Notes under the pieces: generated by a model
What the model saw: only the letters and a program-made list of their open reading frames with translations
The model's database searches: none
Told to the model about the DNA's origin: nothing
NCBI GenBank assembly: GCA_002633005.1
Contig: NMRA01000478.1
Location: forward strand, 264,881-328,880
Length of the DNA stretch: 64,000 nt
Reading direction: 5' to 3'
DNA from: Phoronis australis
Taxonomy: Eukaryota; Animalia; Phoronida
Part shown: piece after piece, positions 26,012-64,000 of the stretch
Layout: every line of letters begins with the position of its first letter
Position numbering within the stretch: position 1 is the stretch's first letter
Program-made: the position numbers and the translations under genes

Positions 26012-29000
26012 TTAGTTGCTGATACTACCAAAACGTACGCGTGAGTGTGAAACTCCCCGGTTGTAGAAATATGAAGCGCACGTCTGACAACATGTTCGCC
26101 AGTTTCCTGGGACTGTGCAGTGGGCAGGCTTGCACCCACTGTTGCGGTCACCGTAAGCGCAGCCTGCGAAGAAATAATGTACAATGAGAGAATCAATTTC
26201 TATTCTGCTGATTTGTAGCACCAAACTACAGTTTTTAATTGCTACATGGGCTTGCGACAAATCTCGCGACATTTTATTACTGTCTAGGACGAGATTTTTT
26301 GTAGTATTTAGTGGGCTAAGTCAAGGATTGATATGTGGTGTTCAGTCATTCACCCTCAAGAAAATACCAGAGGCCATCGTTAACTCAAATTTTAAAGCTT
26401 TCCAGACCTATGAAATGACAATAAAGCTGTGACTGAACTGTTACTGAATAAAAGACTGGTAATTTTGACTAACCTGGTATTGCAATGGCCGCTTTCAGTT
26501 TGCCGCAAGACTCACAACAACGGTTTTCGAAAAATCTGCTGTAACAATTTTGTGTGTCGGCGCAAGTATCTTTGGAGTTGGCAAAGACTGGACCAGGAGT
26601 GTCGCCATGAGGACACGTGTCTGTAGGAGTAAAGGTAAGTTCTGGTTAAGCTAGGGAATGCATTAGGGCTAACATGCACATGTCACGATTTTCTCGTACA
26701 AAAGACCTGAAAACTATGTGCCAGACTGATTCATTAATTCGGAAATAATAAAAACATTCTAGCGCTTGTTATATTGTAACGGGTTTGGCATGAAGTTCTG
26801 GAAGAGATCACGTTTACACGAGCAATTTTGCCTGAAATTTCGAACTCAAAAATACGCCTATTTCAGCTACGGTAAGTTCACCAACTGCTTGCGGGCGTTC
26901 TGTACAAAAAGCTGATGCTCACCTGAAGCTTCAGGTGCTTTTGGATCGTGGACGCATTTGCCATTCTGACACCACTGCAACAAAATATGGATAGTTTATT
27001 TGCTGCACATGACCAGATGGGCATCAAGGGACATTGCCGTGATAAGCGCCAGGGATTTAGTGGGGCGAGCGGAATGTCACAAGTTTGTCAAATTGGTAAA
27101 GGTGAACACCACCTCCCCCCAATCGGGACCTCCCAAATCCCCCAACGTGTTATAAATCCCCAGTGGTTATCTATAATTAACGACCGCCAGATGGTAAGTC
27201 TTATGCCCGTCCTGGTCACCTGACATTTGGTACGTTTGTTCACAAGCCCCATGGTGGAGTTTCTTTTTAACATGAAGATTAGTCCAAGTATTGGCAATTA
27301 AGAGAAAAAATTCACAATATCGGATGCTGTCTAAAAATACAATATATGGAGATACCAAGTAAACCACAAAGTTTCCACTCAGGCAATGCGTACATGTGTC
27401 ATTTTAGAATTCGCAATTATAGGGCAAGCCAACCTCAGTGAACTCTGAAGTCTTTCTTGGGTCCCCAACGGTTTCGATGTTCTATCGATACCTATCACGG
27501 AAAAAATACTATGAAATCGGTTGTATAAGAGTAAAAGGTGTGTAATTCGTTTTTCGTTTTTATCCAGCTAAGTATGGGAAATGCAAGTACATTTGTAGTA
27601 CCGATACACACCCATTCCAGTAAAACATTTTTCAAAAATAAGACACAGATAAGTAAGATAAGTCACATTAACCATTTCCAAACATTAAAACAAGTACTGA
27701 TTTCCCCATATTTTCTGTGAAATACAATACATTGCAGTTGAATCAAAATCAATGTCAATTTGTACCTTACGGTTGCCGCACGTGGTACCACGGGCAGCCT
27801 TCAGCGACCCCGGGCGGTAACATCCCTTTAGTGTTGGATGGTAACAGTACATCAACCTACAAATCATCTGGTCTTGTCTTCTTCCCTGAAACGGGAAATG
27901 AATTGCACGGCAAGTGAATGTTGACATAAAACTGAAACTGTTTTTTTAACTTATGCCCAACGCACATGCATATATTGAGCTGAAATCAAGCATTTTCAGC
28001 GACTATACAACCAAAAGTGTTTCCACGACAAACTATAGTATATGACTTGGAACTATTTGTTGACTGTGCAGCTACTGACGATGTTTGAGTGAAGTTCAGC
28101 CAATCGCCAGGCGGTGTACACAAGGATAGATCAAAATCCGAGTAATTTAGTGTGCGCGTCCGTTTAATGAATACAATATATGGAAACATGAATGTTCTCC
28201 TAAATTTGTTCTGGTTTTGTTCGTATTATTGTTGTGGCCAAAAACGATATTATGTTTATACCATATTTGATATTCTCTGCAAATAATCTAAAACCAGCGA
28301 AGCTTGGAAGCGCCCGAACAAGAAAAACACACGGGTTTAGGAGGATGTGAGGGTTGTGGCCTCCCTTGTCTGCAATTGAAAAGCATAGACTGTCTAGGAC
28401 AATTGGCTGTGTTTCTCATTTGCCGGGTATCTTGGTTGTCGCCTCTTGTGTCGCCCTGGCGACCATATACCCGGAGTACAGCAACAGATGCCGTCAACAG
28501 CCACGTAAATTTTCGACAATATGGGTCTAGTACAACATAGGTCACAACACACAGTCTCGCGGCACCCAAAATCCGCTAGTAAAGATAAGAACGCCTCTAC
28601 TGTGAACACTCTGCCTGGAAGATGATTTCCCGGAGGGAACTAATTCGGATTTATTTAAAGTATTTCGTACTGGATGTAGATTTAAAACAATAAATGATTT
28701 ACCCCGCAGTAATAAGACAGTTGACCGTACACCTGTCGACACTGGTCATCCGGTGTGTTCTGCTGACCAGGCTGTATGCTGAGATGTGACTCCCACTCGG
28801 TATTGTTGATAAAATCCTTGGCTTTGTTCAAAAGGCAGTTCCTGCCGTATCTGTAAGCAGCCATCGAAGTCAGAAATTAAGGTTAAGTTTGTGTAGGGCC
28901 CTAGAAACATGGTCAAATTTAAATACCTCAGAAATGGCGGACCGGATTCACCGGAAACTTCCAGACGCCACGCTTTGTGCACTGTTCTATGGGTACAAAA

Positions 29001-32000: not shown

Positions 32001-35000
32001 ATTAAGCGATGTGTGAATTACAGCCGTGTTTCAGACACAGATAGGCTGTACTGGATGTTTCGTTGACGTCATTATGGTCGACTTTCCGCCCTACTCCGTT
32101 TTTGACGTGATTATTAATGTCTACTGTCCATACTTTTACGTTCAACCAAATTACAAACCTGCCAAAGCAATTTGTTTCGAATTTGTTGGTAATTTGAATC
32201 TTCAGTGATTGCCTCTCCCCAGTGGCCCCCTAAAAATCGTTTTATCTGCTTTTTATCAAGCTAAATCACGCGACAGTGCATGCAGTTACGTGGGCATTTC
32301 GAACGCTTCTCACTTACATTGTGCACAACATGTACCACGTGGTGACGTAGCGCTTGTATGGCGTCGCGGGACTTTTCCTTTTCCCCGCTTTTAGAGCTTT
32401 TGTCGTGATATCTGCAGATGAGGCAAGTCAGGTTTACATGTCTCTCGGTCATAACTCGTCATTTGACATAACCTGATCATTCAAATAGGCGGGATTTCTA
32501 AACAAAATGAAACTTGATCTTTGTATTATAATCCCTGCATTATCTTTACGGAGAAAAACAGAAACAAAAAGCGACAAACCTCTTATATAAAGCGTAATCG
32601 ACAACAACTAAAACTTCAATGGTTAACTGCTGGAGTGGGTTGTTCTCCTTCTGCAGCAGCGATCCCCAACTGTCCTCATTGTCTTCTTGAGTTGAAACGG
32701 AAATTGTAGGTGTCAATTGAATTGTTGTTGGTGTGGGCGCCATTGTAGTAATAGAGGGTGCGCTTGTACTTGAGTCTGCCGCAGTCAACGACTGTTCTGT
32801 CGTGTGATCGGTTAGTGGCGAGCTCGCTGTTGTCGACTGCTCTGTCATGTGATTGGTTAGAGGCAAGATCGTTGTTGACGGGTTTGGATTTCTAGTCCAA
32901 GTTTGTATGTTTCGAGGCATTGACGGAGGTGAGTTGGTTGATGTCATTTGTAAGTAATTATCTTTCACGGTTGTTTGCTGTAAATCTTCTTTTGTGACAA
33001 ATTGGAAATTTGTTGTCTGTCGTGTCTGACTTGTTGGTTTTTGTGTAATGGTGGAATCTGGGAGTTCTGGTGAAGTGCCGAGATGATGATGTTCTGACGC
33101 AACAATAATTTTATCTAGAACTGTAGTTGTTGTCGCGGTCGTTGATTTTCGGTATAATCGCAATCTGCGGCGTGTTTGCTCTCTAATTTTCTTCAGCCAT
33201 CTCAAATAAATGGGTGACTGCTGTAATTTTGTAACGTAGCTGGCTTTGGTGACTGGAGCTGTCGTCGTCATTGCTAGTGTTCCTGTTGTTGTTGTTTTTC
33301 TTTCCGAACCTTCAGTCTTCCTTGCCAAAGTTGATTCAATTGGAGACGAATCCATTACGGTTGCTATGGCAGGAGTTGTTGCTTGCGTGATCTTTACTGA
33401 CATAGCCCTCTGATCTTGTGTCTTAAGAATCGTATAGTGGAAGTTATCTTGACGCCTGTGCGTGGAATCAAATTTATACCCCGTTGTTGTAATACCATCA
33501 TTATAAGAGATCATCGGCGTTGGTGTGGTGATTGAAGTGCGAGTGCTGGAGCTTCTGGAAACCATCTCTCTAAGGCGCATTCTTATTTTGCGCAGCCATT
33601 CTGGTTCTACGTAAGACCCACGCCGTCTAGTTGCATATTCAGACCGAGACCTGGTTGTTGTGTCGACGCTACGTGTAGAACTAATTGGTTTTGGAGTGGA
33701 AGAATTGGAATCATCGTTCTCCAGATTTTCTTTGTCCCAAACATTGCCACTGGGAAGGCCATAAGTCCTCTGAACGACCGTAGAAGTTTCAAATAGGCTT
33801 CCTCCTGCTGAGTGGTGACCAGAAGATGAGGAAACAAATTGTGCACTGTGACCAGGAGCACCGAGTGAGGGAATATTTATAGGAGACGAAGGGTCTGAGG
33901 TAGGCATTGTTCGCCTACCTCCACGACCAATGTTGTTGTATCTCCCAGATATGAACACGCTCCTGGTCCTGTTTAAGAATGGTCTAGAATACTGATTTGA
34001 GCGACGGTCTTCTGCAACGCGATGCCGTGGCCTCTGCCACCACATGTTACCGTAATTACGCGAATTGGTGCCAGGAATTGAGTTACCATTATTTGTTCTC
34101 GGTGCTGTGGTATAGTCTTCTGATGGATGTCTCCCTGGGTTAATGTGATCTGAATTTCTCACGAGGTTGTTAAATGTCGGTGGGTTATATCCGACGCGAG
34201 ACGCCCAAGATCCACGCCTCTGCGACAAGCCTCGCTGTCTATCGAGTGATTCGATTTGGCGACTAAGCTCTCTCATCATTGCGTCTAATCGCTGCTGAAG
34301 TGCTAAATAACGCCCAGAGTCTCTTCTTGGTGTCAAATTTTCCGTTGACGACGACGGAACTCTTGTTTGACTCCCACGATTGTGGTGCGAATAGGAAGGA
34401 GCTCCCGGGCCTCGTGGGCTCCTACGGTAGCTTGGAAAGTTCGTGAAACGACGTCTACCATTGTTATGTCTGGACTGCCAACTGGAAAACCCGCCACCAT
34501 TTCTTGCCTATAAATTACAAGAAGAAAACGTGTTGTTATAAACTTTGAGTATTTGAAAGAAGGCAAAAATCTAGAATGAAAGACATAAATTGAGGGTTCT
34601 CAGCCTCAAATCATAGCACCATTTAAAAGTGTGCATGTTACTTTAAAACCCGGCGGCAAGTAAAGGTTAAAAGCCAGTGTTAAAGCCTTTGAAATTTCCC
34701 CAAAATGAAAAAAATGGAATAGGCCCGGTTTGGTGTCAGCCAGGCGGGCATAATGGAGGGTGATTATTTCGGATGATTTTCAGTGGTGCTGTGAAGCTCT
34801 GACGTGTAAAACGTCCACCCATTTGACCTCTGATAATCTGGAACTGGAAGTAAGCCGTTTTTAAAGCATTTCTTTGTTCAGCCGAATATTTTCCCGCAAA
34901 TACTTTTCAGACGAATAGAAAATGGAAATAAATCTACTTGTAATCACTAAGTTCTCCTTTTGAAACCCGCAGGGCAAGAGCAATTTGAATCGAGTCTCCG

Positions 35001-47649: not shown

Positions 47650-48265
47650 GAGTAAACTTTGATACCTTACAAATATATAACAAAATGACCGCTGAAGTGA
47701 TTGGCCAGCGAGGTTGGAGAAATTTCGTCCGGCGAACGTTTCCATCAACGGTGATTGCTCATCCAAGTATGAAGTGATAGTCCTGCGGGTATTTCGTGAT
47801 GACTTGTGTAATGTCGCCAAAATCTCAAGGATCCACTTGGAGCACAAGTCCTGGGCCCGGTCTCCAATCTTTTTACTCGAAATGGAACTCAAAATTAGGT
47901 TTGGCATTTTCTACTCTACTTTTGGGCGAACTCAAGATAAGTGTCTATTATTCTATGCTCGAGTACACAATAACTTCCGTAGATAATTTATTGCCCTTAG
48001 TTCACAGTTTGTAAACCCAATAATAAAGCAATAAGTTCGAGCTTGAACTCGAAATTTCGAGTTTTTACTCGAGNGTAAACTTTGATACCTTACAAATATA
48101 TAACAAAATGACCGCTGAAGTGATTGGCCAGCGAGGTTGGAGAAATTTCGTCGAACGTTTCCATCAACGGTGATTGCTCATCCAAGTATGAAGTGATAGT
48201 CCTGCGGGTATTTCGTGATGACTTGTGTAATGTCGCCAAAATCTCAAGGATCCACTTGGAGCACA
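47650..48265. repeat. ~195-bp direct duplication (47650-47846 and 48071-48265), second copy starting at a single N
   Basis: Near-identical gtaaactttgataccttac..ggatccacttggagcaca twice. An n sits at 48074, and the intervening segment begins with a MITE-like end cctgggcccggtctcc. Confidence 0.8.
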
Positions 48266-48603
48266 GGTTAGAGTTCGGTGTATCGCAGCGAGAAAGATTT
48301 ATCCAAAATCCCGTGCTCTCATTCTGTTGAAAATACACGGCAAAGACGTGCGTAATCTCGCGAAGCCGTGCTTATTTAGAGAGGTCCTACCGTTACTGAA
48401 CTCTACCCAGGTCTTTCGTTAAAGAAAACTTCCCCATCGCGACGTCTTAGTTCTGGAAATCTCTCACTTTGAGAAAATGGCGTCATCTATTGGCAAAAAG
48501 TAAAACACCACACTATTAGTCGAGTTGCGGCGTGCAACAAATGTCTCGTGTTAACGTGATGTGAAATGTTTAACATCAATAATCAATCATTTTCTCCCAG
48601 AGT

Positions 48604-51600
48604 ATGGCGTGTTTTATAGCAGTAGCCTTTCTGATAGTGTTAGCATTTTCAGAAGAAAACGCCAATGCAGGTGAGGTACTTCACGCCTTTATCACAGAGT
48701 TATTTCCGTCTTTGGTAGGAACCTTTACATTTGTATAGGGGTGTACTTTAGTGGACAGCAAGCAGATATAAAGCGCCTGAATAATTTGCTTCTTTGTCAG
48801 TGGTTCCTTTTCTTACCTTTTAGTAAACAGTTGCGTTGTTTTGTCACCGGTTCGGAGTTTTCATGACTTTGAAAGATATGATGCAGTTTGTGTGGTGGGG
48901 GAGAATAATCGTAAAGGAGAACTGAAAATGAACAATACGATTATTTGGTTTCAACTAAGGCTAGCCAATACATTAGTTGATATCTGAACCAACCCTTAAC
49001 AGGGTTGGAAGCCCGCACATGGAAAGCGTAGAAACCAGCGTTATACATAACACACTCGAATTGATCGTCAAATATTTACCTTCATTTGTCGAAAAAAAAA
49101 CAGCGTATATAGGTGCACGGCAATCAAGTCCTTCAAAAGAACTTATTCACTCGAAATTCACTTTTTACTATTGGCTTGTCACTCCGTCATTTTCATTTTT
49201 TTACCTAGCGGTGTGCTAGTCGTGAACTAAAGCATTCACCTCGCTCATTGGCTGGCATTTGGGTCACTACATGGTGTCATTAGGTCAAAAACTGAGAGTA
49301 AGCGATGGCAGACGATTTAATTCGTCGTTGTTAGAGAAAGGTAAAAAGAGGCTTGTTTCTAAATTACATAGGTCTTCATTGCGAGGTTTTTGATTAAGAC
49401 ACTAGATTGCCGAAGGAATTGCCTATATTGTGTGTAACCGTTTGGGTGTTAATTGGTATTCAGGTGACTTATAAGCCCAAGAGGCTGGGATTATGTTGCA
49501 TATGAAGTTCACTTGTTTTGTATTGTATTGTATTGTATTGTATTGTATTGTATTGTATTGTATACTGCGATGTTCCCATATCATTATTATAAATAATAAT
49601 TATATATAACCGGTAAGACCGTTTACGGTTCCCTAAGTATGTTGTGGGAATGCAATTTGGTTATTACCAGGGTTTTCTGTTGATTAGCCTATCCGATGAA
49701 ACGCCCATGGGCTTTATTTGGTGTTACAACTTCTGGTGTCAAGTGTCCTGATAGCGTTTATTCGGAAAATTTCCTCTTGAAAGCCCGCTAAGCGTCAACG
49801 TTTAGTCACAAGTTCAGTTTTGAGGAGCATTTATCATTTATAAAAACGAACAAAGTGCTGGCGAACTATGCATTTATTGAAATAAATTTAAAAACTTATT
49901 TTTAAGTAAAAATGTCAGTCAGGCAACCTATTACTTTCCGTTTACACGCCCCCCATTCAATCGGAGTAAACGCCCGGGCGTTTATTTGGTATTACTAAAA
50001 CGACTGAAATTTTTCATTTTCCGACTTTGGGCCCATGAGCTTATTTACAGAAAATCACGTTAACACAATGATCAAATATTTTCCAGAATTTGAGAAATGA
50101 ACATACATGTAAATTATATGAAGTTTTCGGTGTGGGGGCAAGATACTTATTGAGTGTGTTAGAACTACTTATGGAATCATGAAAGGTCTTACTTGGTTAA
50201 ATTTTGCTTCTTTTTGCATCTGTGTAACAACTACCAATCAATTCATCTACCACTTTATGCTCATTGATGCTGACCTAATGACGTCATTTTATACTAAGTA
50301 GTGACCCGAATGCCAGACAATAAGTAGTTTGTTATCCAGTAGGCGAAAAAAAGTAAATGGCGGAGCGACAAGCAAACCGTAAAACGCCGAGTCTTCAAGA
50401 GAATATTTTAGTATTCTCTCGGACTACTTAAAAATATTTTGAACGTGTAATTATATTCGCCATATAATTTATGCAGATAAATTTCTTCACGCAATCATAA
50501 TTTGAATGTGTGCAATGCGAGTACGATATTCACTCCTTGCACACATAGGTGGCGCTGCAAAAATTATTGTTGTACATTGTTATTGTTATTTAGGACACAA
50601 TGCCTCGTTTTAGCATCAATTTTAACAACGCAAACGTGAATGCGCGAGTGTTCTAAACATGCACCATCATTTGTAGCTTGAACGCAACACCTCGCTTTCA
50701 AGCGTAATTGAAAATTCGTGTATGGAGTGAACATGCAAGACTAAACCCTGCAATATCAACCTAAAGACTTCCAACTTTGTTTGAGTTTAGTGTTTGTTTA
50801 CTGACTAATATGAGTCAGCCTTACGTGCAAAACTAACTTTTTGTTGAGACCGCTTTTATCTATAAAGTTAGTCTCAAATCGAAATAAGCTGTGTTCTGTA
50901 GACTTGGGAAAACCGAATTGTTCCTGAATAAATGTGCCGCAGCAGTTGTTCCACCCAATCCTGAAATTTCGTCTAAGTTTTATAACGGTAATTCGAACTA
51001 ATTCAATCCTCGAACGCTAACACCATTTGCACGCAAGCACAAGATAATACGTGAATCCCTCGTTCAACAGTCTCCAGCGAACTTCTCGGCACATCAAATA
51101 CTTTACGTCGCCATCACACACCCAAGTGAGCTTATCGCTATTTATGGACTTGGCCGAATGCGTATTGGATGAGATAGTTGCAGTCGCAAATCAACACGCC
51201 TTTTTAGCGTACGAGTTTCAATGTAAAAAACGAACAGTGTATAAGGCAAACTACCAAAATGACTTTTTTAAAATTGAAAAGTAAATAATGGCCTCTCCAA
51301 GATTTTAAAATCGGTGTACTATAAGAGAAGTTATACATAATATGTTACCTTCAGGAACGCGGCTGATTGAGCCACGCGCATTAATTAACTTTTATGAAAG
51401 GGTGGGTTAGTCAAACTCTGGCTTAGGCTCACTTCTTACCGCGTCCTTGAGCGTTGGAGTGACGAAATGCCAAATGTTAGCGTATGAATTGCCTCACGAA
51501 ACTTGTTTCAGCAGTGGAATATGCGTCGTTATCCAAACCTCCGGAAATTGTGCCAAATGGGTTGACAGAAACGAGTGTTCGAATAAAAATTCCCCTGTGG

Positions 51601-53459
51601 AGAACCGGTGACGTTGGTGACAACCCTCCATCGCAATACTTCGTCCGGCTGAAGGACGAGGACAACGGACAAGTGTTACGGTTCCTCTCCTTCTCGCATT
51701 CGGCAGTCCAGAGTAAAGAAATTACCATGGCTCTTCCATCTGCAGTCCGAAGAGCGATTATAACTGTGGAGCCAGTGACAAGAGAAACTAACACTCAAAT
51801 GCAGTACGACGTTTTGCATCTGGGTGCTGCTGTGTCGCTGCTTGTAGGTTAGATGAATCCGAGTTTCTTTGTAATGACACGTTTTTAAAGAGTTACACGA
51901 TATCAGCTGAATTAAATCAAGACGTTTTTGACAAAAAATTGAAAACTGGATGTCGTTTGGTCTTTAAATTTAGGTAACCATAGGGCTCTAGTCCTGGAAT
52001 GCCAACTGCCGCACGTGACCTATGCATTCTATTGTTAGAACTTGGTACCCCGAGACTAGCCACGAGAGTTTGCACTGTAAATTTCAGGCAGTCTGGTCGA
52101 CTGAGTTTTGGTCGAGTGTTGTAGTTATCAAATCAAGCCAGATTTCATTGCTTCATTTTCATTTCGTCTTCTTTGTTCATCAAGCGAGACTCTTGAGGTA
52201 CAATTAGTCAACAAGACCGACAATTACATTGGTCATTGTTTATACGCACCGAACTGTGGCCCAGTCTCGATGACAGGAATCATCTGACCTGTGATATCTA
52301 TTCAGCTCCAGTCTTAGAACTACTTTTGACAACCTATTAAACTACATGCTAGGACTTTTTCAACGAGAGATTTTTGAATGTTAAAATCATGTTACTGTGT
52401 TTTACCCGAGAAAATATAGTAGAAATGATATTGAATCGAGATGTGATACAAAAGACATTTTCCGGTTCCATAAACCTGAACAGTTTGTCATACTTCTGTA
52501 AAGAGAGTTCGTGACTGCTCTGACGCTAGTAGCAATAAGTGTGCTACCTCGAGCGACTATCTCATCAACAATACAAAATTGTGTATTTGTTTGTAGGAGA
52601 CCCTAAGACAGATCTCGTGGTTATAGTCGTGCCGATTGTAATGGGGGTTCTCTTACTATTGTTTGTTGCCGTCGGAGTTTACTTTTGTATCAAACGAAAA
52701 CGGAACAATCACGCGGAGAGCAAAAGCAAAAATCCAACTGGTGATGTGTTTCAGCCAAACGAGCTGGAGACCAGGGATCAGACGACGAGCCGCAGCCTCA
52801 CATTCATGGATCGCCTGGTTGGTCACAGCGCTAGTTCTGTCGATCGTCTTGTCAGCACAAGCAGGATGGAGCTCGCTGAGGCCATGGAATCCGACAACCT
52901 CGAGTGGATAGCGCGCTCCATAGAGAGGGTGAAGAGAAGCGCCGCCGGGAGACATCTGAAGCCGGAACTAAAGCAAGCGTCGGAGACTAAGGACAAACTA
53001 AAGCGAATAAAAAAACCGCGAGACGCTGTGGTCAAGATGTCTCGAGAGACTCTTATGGAGCTCCGCGAATACCGGAACCCTCCAGCTGCAGTGCACCATA
53101 TAATTCGAGCAGTTCTTCTACTGCTGGGCACAGGCGAAGACATCACTTCAGACTGGTTGAAATGTCAGCGGCTTTGCAACACGCTGTATTCGCCGTACAA
53201 CCACGGGTTGTTTCTGAGGATACAGAACTTCAAACTGAAGTTCCTACACCCGGAAATTGCAATGCGAGTCCGCGAGATGCTGGCACCGTACAGTGCCGAT
53301 AGTGTAAACGTTGTGCGTGATGGTCTGGGATTGTTTTACACATGGGCCAAAACAATGACCGACGAACGGCTCCGAAATGTGGACCCGCTTCCAAAACCAG
53401 CCAAAGGAGACCGTCAAAATGCTATATTGTCTGATATGGCTAAGCTGAGACATTTCTGA
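48604..53459 (+). CDS. Type I membrane protein (~421 aa): signal peptide, FN3-like domain, TM helix, cytoplasmic dynein-stalk MTBD-like domain
   Basis: Exons 48604-48670 (MACFIAVAFLIVLAFSEENANA, signal peptide, G|gtgagg), 51512-51847 (LSKPPEIVPNGLTETSVRIKIPLW..QYFVRLK, FN3-like, G|gttaga) and 52597-53459 (TM LVVIVVPIVMGVLLLLFVAVGVYFCI, then KRKR stop-transfer, then ELREYRNPPAAVHHIIRAVLLLLG..DW..IQNF..FYTWAKTM). Both introns are phase 1 and GT-AG. Confidence 0.8.
49520..49563. repeat. (TATTG)n microsatellite
   Basis: Directly visible, about 8-9 units. Confidence 0.9.
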
Positions 53460-53739
53460 ATCTTCTGAGCGAAAGTCATGTGCAAACAATAGTGCATTTA
53501 ACATGAGGCATTGCAACGGAAGTAAGGTTACATAAGTTTAAACTATGTTGCATATAATTATTCGTAGTTGCTTTCTCATCACCGGCGTATCCACGAAAGA
53601 GGGGAGGTGGAGAGGGGCACTACAGGGCCGTGACCATTGCTTGAAATTGGTCTCTAGATAATGCTTGCCAAAGTGCCTCCAGGTTGCCTCTCACCACAGC
53701 CACGTCCCGTTCGCCAACAATATCGCGTTTGGTCCTCCT

Positions 53740-54115
53740 GTGCCTGGTTGCTTCCCAAATAGGGATGGTCATTTCTTATGCTGTTTGAGTTTCATTACTA
53801 AGTGAATTTTTGGCTTTGGTGCAAATTGAGAGTGAGGTCTGCGTTGAATTTTCAATATTATCGAAAATAAGTAGGGATCTTTTTATGCAACGCCCCTGTA
53901 AGTTAATAACTAAGTCCCCGGCCTTAATGATGACTCAGTTATGGGCTCGGTATTTAGTTATATTATCAGAAAATGTCATTTGTCAAAGACGCGGTCATAA
54001 TAAAGACAAAATTATAAAAATATAACATCTGTGAGTAAAGAACGAAACAGCTACGCAAAAGATTTAGGTAACTTAGCTGACTCCCTATTTGGGACTGTTT
54101 CATGCAGCCGAGCAT
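53740..54115. mobile_element. MITE, family copy 2 (left TIR partly deleted)
   Basis: Colinear with 42917-43348 (tagggatcttttcatgcaacgcccct core, one mismatch). Right TIR tccctatttgggactgtttcatgcagccgagca. Confidence 0.7.
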
Positions 54116-56355
54116 TGTTGAATACTTTCAGTTACGCCGTTTAACCTCATTCTAGACCCCTGTTTTCATATTCCAATAAAATCGGTCATATATCTTTTCG
54201 TGCAAATTTCAGCTGTCGTGAAAGCCTACACAAAGTGACATTGACACAGCACGTACCACCAGACAGTGAGGGCGTGTTGCCGTTTCAAGGTAGTACATTT
54301 ATCGTCAAATTTCAAGAAAGTAGGGTTTGTTTCGTGAAAAGTGAGTTAGCTTAAATTAGAAACCTCCGCTTATGTTCCACACAATTATTTCCTAAACTGA
54401 GTCCAATCGTACTTCAACAAAGTACTAAGTGCCCGAAGACGTACTGGTATATTGCGGGTTAACCAGACCAACTGTGTGAAGTATTGATATTGTTTTATTC
54501 AGTAATAGCGAAATCAAATTTAAAATGTTAAGTCGCTTTTCATGAAACGGGCCCCTGGTCCAAGGCAAGGACAACGGAAGTTGTTTTATGTGTTCTACCA
54601 GGAAGACAAGTTCTACCATAAGTGTTCGACACGTGTCAACAGATAGTTACACGGCGCATCAGTTGGTAGGCGTTTTACACCTGTATATGACTGTTCTCTC
54701 AGAAACCACACGTTGTGTGCTGTTACTCTCACTAATGACGTGAGTATTGCAAATTTTCTTCAACTACTTACGATTCATGGTTACAGTAAATATCCTTGGA
54801 TTAATAAAATCAAATTATCTATAATACATTTGCACTTGACAAGCTCGAGCTGAAACAATGAACTAGTTACTCCAGGTTTTTAACTGTGAGCTCATGCGAA
54901 TTAGTAACCTAAACCGGTACTTACATTACAAACCGTAAATATAACAAAGAGACATGGTGATCAGTAATAGTAAGTGGAACGCTGCACAAGCACAGTGGAA
55001 ACAAGATTACAAACAAAATACAACAGGGTGGTCTGAAGCAGTCACCTGGCAACTGAAAATCTTTCTCAGCAACTGAAAAGGTCACCCGGTAGTGTCGCAA
55101 CGGTACAAATCACCAATATTGTATCAAAACACAAAAAACAACCCCAGCAGTCGATCAGCTGTCAATTCTAGGACACCTGCAAACACTATCTGACGATATG
55201 TTAATGAGTTGATCTCAAATTACGAGCATTCATTGATCGACATATATTACGTAAACTCCGGACTAAGAGTCACCCTCTCTTGTATTTAGCTTGAAAGTCG
55301 TCAAATATCGCTGTTCGTTTTCCCGTGGTTTGTAAGTTTAGCTCTATATAATGATACTCGCTACAGTACTTATATCAACATCTAAATGGTCGAGAAGCTA
55401 CAACTATTGATCTTGATCATTACAGGAGGAGTCACGTCTTATTCTTTCTCACAATCCAGCAGATAAGGCAGTGTCCTGTGTAGCTAATGTTGAACAAGTC
55501 ACAATCGCCCGACAGCATAAAGGCATATTCTACTCCTCAAAGGTGCCACGCTCAATTCTGTCTCCCCAGATACAAGCGCTCTAGGAAAATTCCCATTGTC
55601 TGCAACCCCAAGATCAACGACCTGGTTCAGATGTCCATTGTGTAAAGAACGATTTAACTACGCGTGATAATCTTGTGAAGCTCCGCCTGATGACCCCTTG
55701 GTCAAAAGCACTAAGGAAAAGTGGAAAAGGCTAGTGGTTTCACTCCTCAGTCGTTCAGTCGGCGTAATACATGACGGCTCCTGAAATCAACGCCAGAGAA
55801 TTAATTGTTCATAAGCTGAATTTAAATAAACTGACACGGTGATTATTGAATAAAATGTGATGTCCAAACTATCGTCACTTGCGATGATTACTGTCACGAT
55901 TCCAGGGGACGGTTTCCAGAGTCTATAACCAAACCTAGATTTTTTGTCTTTTGACTTTGTCTTTTAATCTGGAACAAAGCAGAGTACGAATTTTTGTCGT
56001 TTGACTTCGAGTTGTCGACAGATTTTTTTGAATATATGTTAGCCTTCGTCTGATTTTGTGAAACAGGTTAAGCCATCCGTAGACTTATCTTTTGCCAAAA
56101 GAGAAAAGACAGTCCACTGGTACTGTGAAGCATCACGTAAAAAGAAAATCCAGCAAGAGCCCGACTCATTAAGCCAATTACCGAAACCTGTTTTTGTAAC
56201 GTGATTGAGTGAAGCTGAAAGCTCGAGGGCTCTCTCGCTGGGCGTGTACCCTCATGTTGCAACAGATTTGTAGAAGTCAAGACCAAAATGACAAAATTTC
56301 AAGTGACATATCGGCGAGAGAAGTGACTTCTGGAATCCGTTGCTCAGTATCGATT

Positions 56356-59172
56356 TTACAACCTTAACGGTCGGGGTCCAACGCCATGCTGGCGGAGCTT
56401 AACCCACTGGATGAAAGATATAAACTTACCATTTTTACGAATGCATACTCCTTTCGGAGTCACCACAGCTTTAATCAGTGATTTCCAGAAATCTTCTGCC
56501 TCCAAATCCTTCGTGGGCCACTCGAAGTATATTCCATCGCGTAACAAGAGCCGAAGAGGTTTCGATAGCTTCTCTAAAGCCAAGTCACCAACAACCACAG
56601 GTATTACAAAACCTTTACCTCGCAGTATACTCATTTGCAACTCGAAATAACGCTCGTTTGAGTCCAAGTAATCATCTGTTAAACACAGAATACATTTTCT
56701 ACTGGAGTCAATTCCACGGAAAAATTCATCAAAAACACTGACACCCAACATTGTATCTCTTTCGCGAAAGAACACTTGTAGGCCATATTCTTCCAGTTTG
56801 CGACACATCGAACTTGCGACCTCGTAATCCATGTCAGCATAACAGATATATGCGTCGAACCGTCCCGGCTCTTCTACGAAACAATCGCGTCTACGCTTCA
56901 TTCGAAGGATATATATCCAATATTTCAGGTGCCATTTAAACCGCCAAATGACTAAAATTGAACACATTAAGATGGTCGTGACTGTAGCAGTTACGATTAT
57001 TATCGTGACCTTGGCGCATTGAAGGTTAAGTTTGCCTAAATTGACGTCAATCAACGCTGACTTTCTTCCATCTTCAAATTGACAAATGAGATTGCTTTTG
57101 TTAAATACAACGTGATCCGAAGTGTCACGCTGTATCCATTCAATGAACGGCACATTAGCACATGAACACTCGAAGCCTGAGTTGCTAATCATTTGAAGGG
57201 TCAAAGTGGCGTTTGCTAAATCGTTAGTTTGTTCTTTAGTGAAGCCTTTGATTTCATTGTAACTAAAATCTAGCAATTTCAAAAAACGCAGACTAGCGAA
57301 CTTTAAGTGCACAGACTTCATGCCGTTTCTTTGCAGATTTAAGTATACTAATTGAGGGCACTCAGAAAACGAATCTTCTGGGAGCGAATTTAACTGGTTT
57401 GAAGACAGATCAATTGTTTTTATGTTGGGAAGACTGCTGAACAATGTTAAAAAATCCTGAGTTCTTGTAATCAACCCGATTCTGTTTATTGACGCATGCA
57501 GGTGCTCTAGTTCACCCATTGCCCTGAACAGCTTGGGGTTAACGTACTCTAAGTTGTTGTTGCTGATATTGAAAATTTTCAATGATTCCAAACCGTACAC
57601 TACTACGTTTATGTACGTGAGGAAATTGGAAGAGATGTCTAAAACTTGTATGAAGTTTTTTAGCAGCACCCTTTTATCATTCCATGTAAAGTCTGATATG
57701 TTGAGGTCATACATTTTGGATTTTCCGTTGTTGAAAAGTGACGAAAAGGAGAAATCAACTTGAACCATGAAAAGTTTTTCTAGCGGAATACTACCTTTTA
57801 TCTCAGCGCCATCTGTCGCGATTTTTGCACTCGGTTGCATCTTACGCTTCTCTGTTTCCGTTTTAAACGTATTGGTCAATGGTCTTCCAAAATCAGGTTT
57901 TGTATACATCTGCTGTCTCGTAAAGGATTTGACGGAAGGTTGTGTTTTACTTTCCAATGCTTTCGACGTCAATGTGTGAACTGGCTTATCTGGAAAATCG
58001 CGCCAGAATATTTCGCTCTCATCTTCGAAACAAACATTTATTGTCCTGGCGTGTAAATATTGGTGTGACAAGTGGAATTCCTTCAAGTGTCTTCGAGAAT
58101 ATACGTCCGCAAAAAGACGGAAAGGGTTCCCTTTCACTATCATTGGCATGTTGTAGTCCAAGTTGATATATTCCAAGTGTTTAAGGTGTCGAAGGAAGGG
58201 ACCGACTGAGGTGATGACATTTTGACGCAAAGAAAGTGCCTTCAATGGAATGTGTTTCAGGGGGGAAAACTGGTCGGCGTTCAGTGTGATGGTTTCGTCT
58301 GGATCGTAACATTTATCTATAATCAGAATTTTGAGCCTCGTGGCATTTTCTAGAGATCCCAATATCGGAGAGAAGTACTTTGTTTTCACTCCAATGCGAT
58401 CAAACTCATTGTTGCACGTGAAGTCTAAAACTTGGAGACTGTGTAAAAACGGCTTAATCACGTTTTTGTTAAACCCGGTTATTTTAAGAAATCTCATTGC
58501 TAAACGAGTGATGTTAAGATGCGATAGTGTTTCAAAGGTGCTTTCAGTCAAATTAAGTGTTGAGCTACTCAAATCTAAAACGTCCAGACGTTTCAACAGT
58601 GAGAATCCACTAGGGAGAGGCGACGTCGGCCACGTTATCGAAAGATAACGAAGACTCGGTAAATCTCGAAACGTAGCATTTACACAGTTAGTATCAAACT
58701 GCATCGTCTTTTTCATTTGCAGAGTCTCGAGTAAAGGAGTGGGACGGAAAAACCTTGATGAACCATTATGGCATCCGAAAGACACACCTGTGGTCTTCGT
58801 CAAGCTCAAATTCTTAAGTGACTGTAATCCCATTAAGCTGTCTTGGTGGAAGGAAAGAAATACTTTGTTGCCGGACAAATCTATTTCTTTTAAATGTTTC
58901 AGAGTTATGAAGGCTCCTGCAGGTATGACCGAAATAAAATTTGAGCGCATATATAGGGCAGTTGCATTTGTTGGAATTCCTGTCGGTACAGAAACAAGCC
59001 CTCTGTCGTTGCAGTTGAGAATTGTGTTGTTTTTGTCAAAACTCATGGTGCAATTGGAAGTATTGTGATTTGGCCTTTGGCCACCTTCAACCACAAACCC
59101 GCTGTTGATTACATGCAGCATGGTTGACACCCATAACATCACTTCCAACCACTTTATGTTGCCTGACGTCAT
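56356..59172 (-). CDS. Toll-like receptor (single cysteine cluster type): signal peptide, LRRNT, LRRs, LRRCT, TM, TIR; ~938 aa
   Basis: Long uninterrupted ORF; first ATG at 59172, just after a splice acceptor at 59185-59186. LRRNT NCNDRGLVSVPTGIP; many LRRs (LKEIDLSGN, IKTIDLSSNQL, LKLLDFSYNEI); LRRCT FECSCANVPFIEWI..C..C; TM VTIIIVTATVTTILMCSILVIW; TIR FDAYICY..RERDTMLG..SRKCILCLTDDY..YFEWP..FW. Confidence 0.93.
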   Translation of the reverse strand: MTSGNIKWLEVMLWVSTMLHVINSGFVVEGGQRPNHNTSNCTMSFDKNNTILNCNDRGLVSVPTGIPTNATALYMRSNFISVIPAGAFITLKHLKEIDLSGNKVFLSFHQDSLMGLQSLKNLSLTKTTGVSFGCHNGSSRFFRPTPLLETLQMKKTMQFDTNCVNATFRDLPSLRYLSITWPTSPLPSGFSLLKRLDVLDLSSSTLNLTESTFETLSHLNITRLAMRFLKITGFNKNVIKPFLHSLQVLDFTCNNEFDRIGVKTKYFSPILGSLENATRLKILIIDKCYDPDETITLNADQFSPLKHIPLKALSLRQNVITSVGPFLRHLKHLEYINLDYNMPMIVKGNPFRLFADVYSRRHLKEFHLSHQYLHARTINVCFEDESEIFWRDFPDKPVHTLTSKALESKTQPSVKSFTRQQMYTKPDFGRPLTNTFKTETEKRKMQPSAKIATDGAEIKGSIPLEKLFMVQVDFSFSSLFNNGKSKMYDLNISDFTWNDKRVLLKNFIQVLDISSNFLTYINVVVYGLESLKIFNISNNNLEYVNPKLFRAMGELEHLHASINRIGLITRTQDFLTLFSSLPNIKTIDLSSNQLNSLPEDSFSECPQLVYLNLQRNGMKSVHLKFASLRFLKLLDFSYNEIKGFTKEQTNDLANATLTLQMISNSGFECSCANVPFIEWIQRDTSDHVVFNKSNLICQFEDGRKSALIDVNLGKLNLQCAKVTIIIVTATVTTILMCSILVIWRFKWHLKYWIYILRMKRRRDCFVEEPGRFDAYICYADMDYEVASSMCRKLEEYGLQVFFRERDTMLGVSVFDEFFRGIDSSRKCILCLTDDYLDSNERYFELQMSILRGKGFVIPVVVGDLALEKLSKPLRLLLRDGIYFEWPTKDLEAEDFWKSLIKAVVTPKGVCIRKNGKFISFIQWVKLRQHGVGPRPLRL

Positions 59173-59638
59173 CTCTGTCAACGCCTGAAAAGAAATAAAT
59201 CAGTCATTGCCTTTTGCCCTGTTTAACTTGCTGTAAACGAATATCGAATTTGATCTTTTACTTAATTGTTGCATGAAATCGGTCTTTTGTTTGTCATGTT
59301 GGCATTATACTGGTACACACTGGTTATACGTTTTGTAATTACATCTACTCGTGGACCCAACATGGTTCTTCTTTGTTTTTTTGTAAACACGATGGAGTTA
59401 GGTTGTTTGTGAGAAAATGAAAGACTGTTACTGAAATGGTGTGAGGTCGTGAAACACTTTTCTTGACACCAATCTGAACGAGTAATGCCTATAGCGACGT
59501 GGCTGTTTAACGTTTATTTGGTGTAATTCGGCAGAGAAAAGAAAACAAAAGAGCTGCAAAATGTGTACAGGAAACGACAGGATCACAGCAACAGAACATT
59601 CCCCGTGACGCAAAATTGATGACATATCAATGCATACC

Positions 59639-63274: not shown

Positions 63275-63497
63275 ATGGCAACTCGCAATCCCGACTTGGA
63301 GGAGTATTCATCTGACGAAGACTTCCCAGGTAGATCGTTAGTTTTCTCAGCGGGATATCTGTTCGAACCAGCTAGAGTACACTGATCAAGAAGTATTAGA
63401 GAAGCGCCGTGAACGTGCACAAACAATGGAGCACATGGATAGTTCCGAAAACCGTCTCATGGTGTCAGTGCGCTAACTGCACCATAATGGAAACAAC
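63275..63497 (+). pseudogene. Truncated KolX-like (P2X7 C-terminal ballast-like Cys-rich) accessory gene remnant
   Basis: ATG at 63275 gives MATRNPDLEEYSSDEDF..GYLFEP then a stop. In another frame SWCQCANCTIMET follows, resembling the YxFEP and WCxCxxC motifs recalled for this family. It breaks off where the THAP remnant ends. Confidence 0.55.
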
Positions 63498-63823
63498 TGA
63501 TCCACGTTTCTTTGCTTCCTGCCTGCCGAACGCAAACACACTAGGCACAGTATCTGACTTCAGCCTCGGTTGCTTTTTCTGCCCTGGCATGAGCTGTTTG
63601 GCAAGCTGGAATTCGTCAGTGAAATCACTGTCCACGAAATGTCGGCCACAGACACGGAGATGTTTCACGGCCTCGTACTTGGTATGAACTCCGTACTTGT
63701 CCTTTTTCACTGCCGCGAGCCACTTCCGAAGCATTTCGGGCTCTCGAGGAAATCGAAAAAACGATGTACCCGCTTTCCTCGCCGCTTCAAGTTCGAACAG
63801 GCAGGAACGACACACCACACCAT
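63495..63823 (-). pseudogene. Frameshifted THAP domain (N-terminus of the Kolobok transposase), truncated
   Basis: ATG at 63823 gives MVWCVVPACSN. A 1-nt frameshift leads to RKAGTSFFRFPREPEMLRKWLAAV..LRVCGRHFVDSDF..RLKSDTVPSVF, completing the C2CH THAP signature and AVPT-like box. No DDE domain follows. Confidence 0.8.
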
Positions 63824-64000
63824 GGCGGAATTCACTCTGCATACGAACCACTGACGTCGCTGCGGACTTTCTCACCTTCCTCACAGGCTAACGCGACACC
63901 TCTCGGCAAGGTAAGGTCGACCGTGTACGAGCCGATGTGGCCCCAGACCGATTAAGACGGTAAAAAAGACTAATTAAATCGGGTGGCATTAGCCTTTAAG

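Follow-up and report, generated by a model that had tools for sequence, protein, structure and literature searches.

A Motor-Less Homolog of the Dynein Stalk Tip in the Tail of a Predicted Single-Pass Membrane Protein of Phoronis australis

Homology of the Tail to the Dynein Stalk Tip

A 64,000-nucleotide window of the Phoronis australis genome (assembly GCA_002633005.1, contig NMRA01000478.1, positions 264,881 to 328,880 of the forward strand) contains a three-exon gene at 48604-53459 on the plus strand; all coordinates given here are those of the window. [quoted passage not shown]

A phmmer search of PDB sequences with the tail gave a best E-value of 1.3e-4, the top 13 of 29 rows all being cytoplasmic dynein, and the matches were colinear with cytoplasmic dynein MTBDs over residues 129-264 of exon 3. 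Among 1.84 billion cluster representatives searched, 311 matched at E <= 0.001. The 150 matches that were listed were examined, and all family counts below refer to these. A family profile built from the query and 64 of them (at most 600 amino acids (aa), covering most of the match) matched the yeast MTBD with an E-value of 1.2e-12. Dynein heavy chains or their fragments made up 49 of the 51 PDB matches of this profile at E <= 0.01, and two were designed helical proteins; one of the 49 is labelled a radial-spoke protein, yet is 4,583 aa long. A preliminary description of the stretch had read the tail as MTBD-like, which these searches bear out, and the dynein-like motif string that it quoted runs from 53025 to 53357. 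The Pfam check that it proposed was weak on its own: family MT (PF12777) matched the tail at only 11.2 bits (E = 0.19), under the cut-off of 24 bits, with a model that spans the whole stalk over 344 positions. In the Atlas, the tail was placed with three clusters at 0.89-0.92 (Mollusca commonest) and with one 50%-MT cluster at 0.82, values that serve as a lead only given the low recognition.

An AlphaFold model built with the family alignment reached a predicted local distance difference test (pLDDT) score of 92.7 and a predicted template modelling score of 0.86; the single-sequence model was poor (pLDDT 58.8) and was not used. In Foldseek, all 28 rows shown to rank 32 contained dynein (best E = 8.4e-4, only one at E <= 0.001), in line with the preliminary description. 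Alignment to the dynein stalk 5ayh with VIA-align gave Z 17.4 and a root-mean-square deviation (rmsd) of 3.9 over 143 residues, with model residues 30-181 superposed on dynein residues 3262-3408; the match therefore comprises the head and short stretches of the stalk helices CC1 and CC2. The top 11 rows of the fold search were all dynein (Z 12.6-17.4), as were the top 5 of 48,161 chains in a wide fold search. Identity to the nearest dynein structures was 20-23%.

The tail does not carry a bare head behind a short helical region, as had been assumed, but a conserved unit of about 170 aa. It consists of a family-conserved three-helix cap (52863-53012), a long helix resembling CC1 as a stub of about 25 aa (52959-53033), an MTBD-like head with helices H1-H6 (53034-53318) and a helix resembling CC2 as a stub of about 20 aa (53319-53378). 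A short C-terminal segment at 53397-53429 resembles the motif PA..RQ..IL/IF, as judged by eye for the copy in the window; this motif occurs in 10 of the listed matches, most of them in or near the subgroup of the gene. The tail shares with dynein MTBDs (PF12777; 5ayh, 3err, 6rzb, 6kjo, 8i3j) a six-helix head on a CC1/CC2 base and the H1 contacts. Unlike dynein, it is fused to a transmembrane (TM) helix, has no AAA+ ring, keeps the stalk only as stubs under the cap and stays below the Pfam cut-off. As described before, no AAA family or P-loop was found by Pfam on the tail or exon 2, the 421-aa frame ending at 53459, and a long antiparallel CC1/CC2 stalk is not present, helices of only 25 and 20 residues flanking the head in the model. 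The CC1 proline of dynein is absent and the H3/H6 arginines are replaced, and a proline aligned to the CC2 proline across a two-residue gap, outside the cover of the family profile.

Gene Structure and Expression

The frame of 421 aa is built from coding exons at 48604-48670, 51512-51847 and 52597-53459, separated by GT-AG introns in phase 1 (48671-51511 and 51848-52596). This three-exon model, already put forward in the preliminary description, agreed with the reading frame and with stranded RNA reads at both joints: 4 and 7 reads of runs X1 and X2 at 48670>51512, and 11 and 2 at 51847>52597. Three reads of X1 used a NAGNAG alternative acceptor 3 nt downstream (exon start 51515), which drops one codon. 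Exon 1 holds the ATG and a signal-peptide-like hydrophobic segment in 22 codons plus one base, exon 2 encodes the ectodomain, and exon 3 (52597-53521) encodes the TM helix and the entire cytoplasmic tail. Just before the ATG, the sequence up to 48600 is acceptor-like, with a pyrimidine tract and CAG, so that an upstream exon spliced to 48601 is possible; genomic in-frame stops lie upstream. An intron at 53522-54212 in the 3' untranslated region (3'UTR) was crossed by 22 + 7 + 2 spliced reads, and the last exon starts at 54213, with the first AATAAA at 54803. The stop codon, ending at 53459, thus stands 62 nt before this intron, yet the spliced transcript was seen; such a layout can trigger nonsense-mediated decay in mammals.

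The transcript was expressed in two of three raw-read runs. The RNA support comes from X1 and X2, two runs of one study, about one fifth of each having been read. In run X3 of the same study the exons had nearly no read coverage, and the samples thus likely differ in expression; no X4 contig covered the exons. A stranded read pile at 50166-50213 was rejected as an exon, since both flanks ran on unlike and three differences were fixed. A module search of the 64-kb window gave one real match, the gene itself, and no paralog.

An artefactual or degenerate origin of the locus, be it from decay of a dynein fragment, wrong joining in the gene model or a chimeric assembly, is scarcely credible and largely refuted. 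Stranded spliced reads joined all exons in two runs, TM helix and module share one exon, the frame is intact with a third-position GC content of 0.56 in exon 3 against 0.38 in the introns, and its nearest relatives, 38-40% identical, are not dyneins. What could be said for such an artefact is the low identity to dynein structures, the fact that homolog searches found no ortholog with the same ectodomain, and the amino acid changes caused by two of three coding RNA-read differences. These partial differences, present in both runs at 51549, 52655 and 53287, comprise one silent change, L154F in the TM helix and P365L at a module position that varies; they are likely alleles.

Membrane Topology and Ectodomain

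Type I single-pass topology is predicted from hydropathy and the KRKR motif, with a signal-like start and basic residues inside. The hydropathy profile peaked at the N-terminus and, strongly, at a single TM segment (3.28, window from residue 142), and KRKR occupies residues 167-170, leaving a tail of 255 aa, in agreement with what had been described. The predicted TM helix (52614-52703, residues about 141-165) ends with a juxtamembrane Cys followed by KRKR. Behind it lies a polar linker of about 50 aa (52704-52859), likely flexible, outside the family match, which begins at residue 7 of the query starting at 52845.

The ectodomain of about 112-115 aa has a beta-like pattern and contains no Cys or N-glycosylation sequon. 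Its earlier label as an FN3 domain found no confirmation: no Pfam family matched exon 2, and a PDB sequence search gave 0 matches at E <= 10. A CLCA-type FN3 likewise failed a shuffle test, the score to the FN3-like stretch of relative P0058 being no better than that of shuffled sequences (764 and 884 of 2,000 as high). Neither Transglut_core nor Ig-like_KY matched exon 2 or exon 3 in Pfam.

A Family of Motor-Less Modules

The conserved unit recurs widely among the relatives. Complete heads numbered 130 in 120 of the listed proteins, 99 of the 130 ending within 60 residues of the C-terminus, and the cap accompanied the head in 104 of 131 cases with the query counted; some members repeat the cap in tandem, up to five times. 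No AAA family was found in any of the 150 at E <= 5e-4, MT reached this level in 10 and passed its curated cut-off in five, and Ig-like_KY was present in 48, often together with a transglutaminase-like core. Organism names were obtained for 17 of 30 matches looked up, and all 17 were invertebrate animals, the named hosts being molluscs, annelids, a rotifer, a sea cucumber, amphioxus and a tunicate. An abalone cluster of 300-356 aa bears the name 'cytoplasmic dynein 2 heavy chain 1-like'. A word-indexed search passed 0 of 7,613 candidates with exon 3 alone, and 2 of 7,980 and 3 of 7,998 with an alignment, all scallop KY-like; these searches were crowded and are silent on absence. In the literature no paper on the module was found, within a coverage in which figures, supplements and subscription journals may mention a dynein likeness and hillarin papers are partly included; two 'MTBD-like' matches, in the text available, concern TTLL11 and are unrelated.

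Membrane-anchor signals are frequent in simple patterns: 44 of the 120 full-head proteins carry one, 34 a myristoylation-like N-terminus and 10 a TM helix by hydropathy. These counts are rough lower bounds because some matches look like fragments. The myristoylation pattern is the consensus for this modification, and a Met-Gly start was found in 37 of 144 Met-starting listed matches, against a Gly frequency of 0.05. The KY/hillarin-like proteins of Patella, Helobdella and Pinctada have the same unit of about 170 aa with cap, stub and head; we take hillarin to be the name for the set with Transglut_core and Ig-like_KY. In contrast to them, the Phoronis protein has no transglutaminase-like or KY Ig domain, and it has a signal-like start, ectodomain and TM helix where they have a myristoylation-like start.

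The TM-bearing relatives place the module behind the membrane as well. In the amphioxus CLCA-like proteins XP_035689228.1 and XP_078700756.1, the tunicate VWA protein XP_077966891.1 and the amphioxus CD20-like protein XP_066272931.1, the cytoplasmic module comes after one or more TM helices and lies at or close to the C-terminus. They differ from the gene studied here in their ectodomains, which are mostly far larger, in not forming one clade with it and in having the module unannotated. Since type I designs with the same tail were found in the amphioxus CLCA-like proteins, in the VWA protein of Styela and in a Cys-rich protein, the gene is not alone in its receptor-like layout; the preliminary description had mentioned similar detached modules in some invertebrate proteins, but not this receptor architecture.

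Proteins P0096 and P0134 carry five tandem dynein-like heads each, well over the Pfam MT cut-off and with no AAA family match, and by their domain content are a different motor-less design. In the KY-like proteins P0052, P0128 and P0129, a weak CARD match stands just before the module.

Phylogeny and Origin of the Membrane Fusion

A tree of 36 rows was computed from the query, all 10 TM members and 25 hand-picked non-TM rows out of 121, unrooted and without dynein rows. The gene fell in a starred set of 14 rows with mollusc and annelid proteins, among them the Patella, Helobdella and Pinctada proteins and one of Ridgeia; none of the other TM members lay in this set. KY-like proteins formed the sister group of the gene (support 94/90, unstarred). 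A single clade of all TM-bearing rows was rejected by the approximately unbiased (AU) test (p-AU 0.003), in which the TM group was set by hydropathy and which was chosen after viewing a quick tree. In the quick tree of all 121 rows, no starred set surrounded the gene.

The module was likely fused to membrane anchors more than once, as the gene groups apart from the other TM members; this placement fits the module shuffling proposed earlier. The donor of the module was likely a KY/hillarin-like gene of the cytoplasmic and often lipid-anchored kind; this direction of shuffling is inferred, the tree having neither a dynein nor a root.

Predicted Function and Tubulin Contacts

As the best explanation we tentatively propose, with confidence a little short of even, that the gene product tethers microtubules weakly and statically close to the membrane. 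In such a tether, the three-helix cap would stand in for the long stalk and fix the register of CC1 and CC2, so that there would be no ATP-driven cycle. H1 residues R284, E289 and R291 would dock on tubulin as in dynein. The loss of the H3/H6 arginines would reduce affinity, and binding would therefore need many membrane-clustered copies. Motor-free MTBD fusions decorate microtubules, and movement of CC1/H1 sets dynein affinity (PMC6629372); a capped stub might thus plausibly be a fixed-state binder.

The text available for yeast dynein lists six tubulin salt-bridge residues, K3117, E3122, R3124, R3152, R3159 and R3201 (PMC7042235), which were mapped by counting along printed alignments (phmmer and family profile against the PDB). 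All three H1 positions are kept, R284, E289 and R291 corresponding to K3117, E3122 and R3124. The H1 Glu pairs with alpha-tubulin R402 in dynein (PMC7042235, PMC4298687, as far as the accessible text goes), and the passages of PMC4298687 at hand describe it, with the H6 Arg, as a highly conserved tubulin contact. All 130 family heads have this Glu, and 103 of them (79%) have Lys or Arg at the R3124 position. The R3152 position was basic in 39 of 130 heads, and the R3159 position or its neighbour column in 91 of 130. The head of the gene has a net charge of +3, the family median being +2.5. Besides the H1 residues and this charge, the tether reading is favoured by the frequent membrane-anchor signals among the full-head proteins, by the rejection of a single TM clade and by the fold match to a non-dynein chain bound to a Toxoplasma microtubule.

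Outside dynein, two chains with a motor-less MTBD-like fold were matched. The Chlamydomonas radial-spoke chain 7jtk_C, which we take to be RSP2, gave Z 11.4 and rmsd 3.8 over 143 residues. Chain 9ya2_L of the Toxoplasma intraconoidal microtubule complex, which is microtubule-bound, gave Z 9.8 and rmsd 3.1 over 125 residues; the next row of the search had Z 7.6, and in the wide search an axonemal chain tied at Z 9.8 with rmsd 6.0. Both named chains differ from the gene in being soluble cytoskeletal proteins, at 11-17% identity and with no sequence-level match seen. From its length and numbering (162 residues, numbers 1207-1457), 9ya2_L is probably ICMAP2. The available part of the source is consistent with this in size and numbering, and its main text mentions 'dynein' in a reference only (PMC12819142); for ICMAP2, the available account reports no recognisable domain (PMC10774369).

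The tail might bind microtubules in a non-dynein mode, in which dimers would sit between protofilaments as with ICMAP2 of Toxoplasma and its globular domain. The match of 9ya2_L at Z 9.8 fits this mode, and the loss of the H3/H6 arginines would suit another docking. We nevertheless regard it as very improbable: the identity of the chain is itself deduced, the accession list, as far as it could be consulted, implying that 9YA2 is the ICMT-2 model while the entry title has ICMT1, and at 11% identity to 9ya2_L the family is nearer to dynein in both sequence and fold.

Several results weigh against the tether reading. None of the three H3/H6 positions is kept, L322, N329 and V373 replacing R3152, R3159 and R3201; mutating any one of these arginines in yeast lowered affinity more than 2-fold (PMC7042235). 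The N329 position lies near an insertion, and off-register basic residues occur at 323, 326 and 375. With half of the salt-bridge positions changed, tethering stays a hypothesis. In the family, the R3201 (H6) position is Lys or Arg in only 20 of 130 heads, 85 when the preceding residue is counted, and net charge is zero or below in 39 of 120 heads. The gene also lacks basic residues that are typical of the family behind H3, has Arg where a Ser is 91% conserved, and has a fairly long branch (1.07 against a median of 0.68). The invariant Glu may be structural rather than a tubulin contact. Because 7jtk_C matches, the fold may also occur at sites other than the tubulin lattice. The Z values of 9.8-11.4 for the non-dynein chains stay under about 13, the level stated by the tool to be safe for helical proteins, and so in a range where such proteins can match through helix arrangement. 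From these comparisons, the tail is without the full MTBD contact set, and the evidence on tubulin binding is split.

Much of this evidence would suit an alternative that we consider quite possible, at well under an even chance, namely that the dynein fold is kept with tubulin binding lost, as an interaction domain by which the membrane protein studied here would share a cortical partner with the KY/hillarin-like, CLCA-like and CD20-like hosts. The rarity of the H6 arginine, a K3117 position basic in only 29 of 130 heads, net charges from -9 to +14, most conserved columns that are mainly hydrophobic or Pro/Gly, a cap and a basic patch after H3 that are the family's own and in neither case found in dynein, and the radial-spoke match all point that way. 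Against it stand the H1 contact positions, with their invariant Glu and 79% basic residue, and the Lys or Arg at or next to the H6 position (85 of 130) and near the R3159 position (91 of 130).

A true receptor, in which an outside ligand or clustering would shift the CC1/CC2 register through the cap and so switch microtubule affinity, appears improbable. The CC1/H1 dependence of dynein affinity, as far as PMC6629372 is accessible, the CC1- and CC2-like stubs kept in the module, and the VWA/CLCA ectodomains of other TM members are compatible with it. The polar residues between TM helix and module, however, would make a poor mechanical link, the ectodomain has no known ligand and was assigned no fold in Pfam, PDB sequence and shuffle tests, and the commonest hosts have no ectodomain.

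The tether reading can be widened to a so far undescribed invertebrate class of direct membrane-to-microtubule anchors, in which a capped motor-less stalk tip would have been fused repeatedly to lipid tags, tetraspan, CLCA/VWA and, in this gene, single-pass anchors; the gene would be a minimal surface protein coupling the outside to tubulin without adaptor or motor. We consider this class rather unlikely. A widespread animal module with the fold kept, the stalk capped and a place on membranes would add a new type of anchor for cortical microtubules, and the module family would be a natural series on the MTBD residues and register needed for binding. The gene, with a single ectodomain, TM helix and module, comes close to the simplest case for such tests. 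The papers cited, in their available text, treat the dynein MTBD as a motor part with its affinity set by the stalk. Even without tubulin binding, the module defines a domain that has no name and is present in at least 120 proteins, some of which are wrongly called dynein heavy chains.

Neighbouring Sequence in the Window

Upstream of the gene, the stretches at about 47690-47845 and 48070-48270 are near-duplicates, and a repeat beside them (47734-48201) had high read depth on two strands. A long single-frame Toll-like receptor with leucine-rich repeats, a hydrophobic segment and a TIR domain lies convergent with the gene at 56356-59199 on the minus strand. On the same strand, a Ser/Thr/Arg-rich frame of 650 codons at 32546-34507 has an end stretch that may resemble the beginning of a metalloprotease domain of the reprolysin type, and a short Cys-rich stretch at 26012-26320 may resemble a ShK-type domain; Pfam gave support to neither. 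A THAP domain (E = 7.8e-14) is encoded at 63465-63887 on the minus strand and possibly belongs to a transposon-derived gene that the window end truncates.

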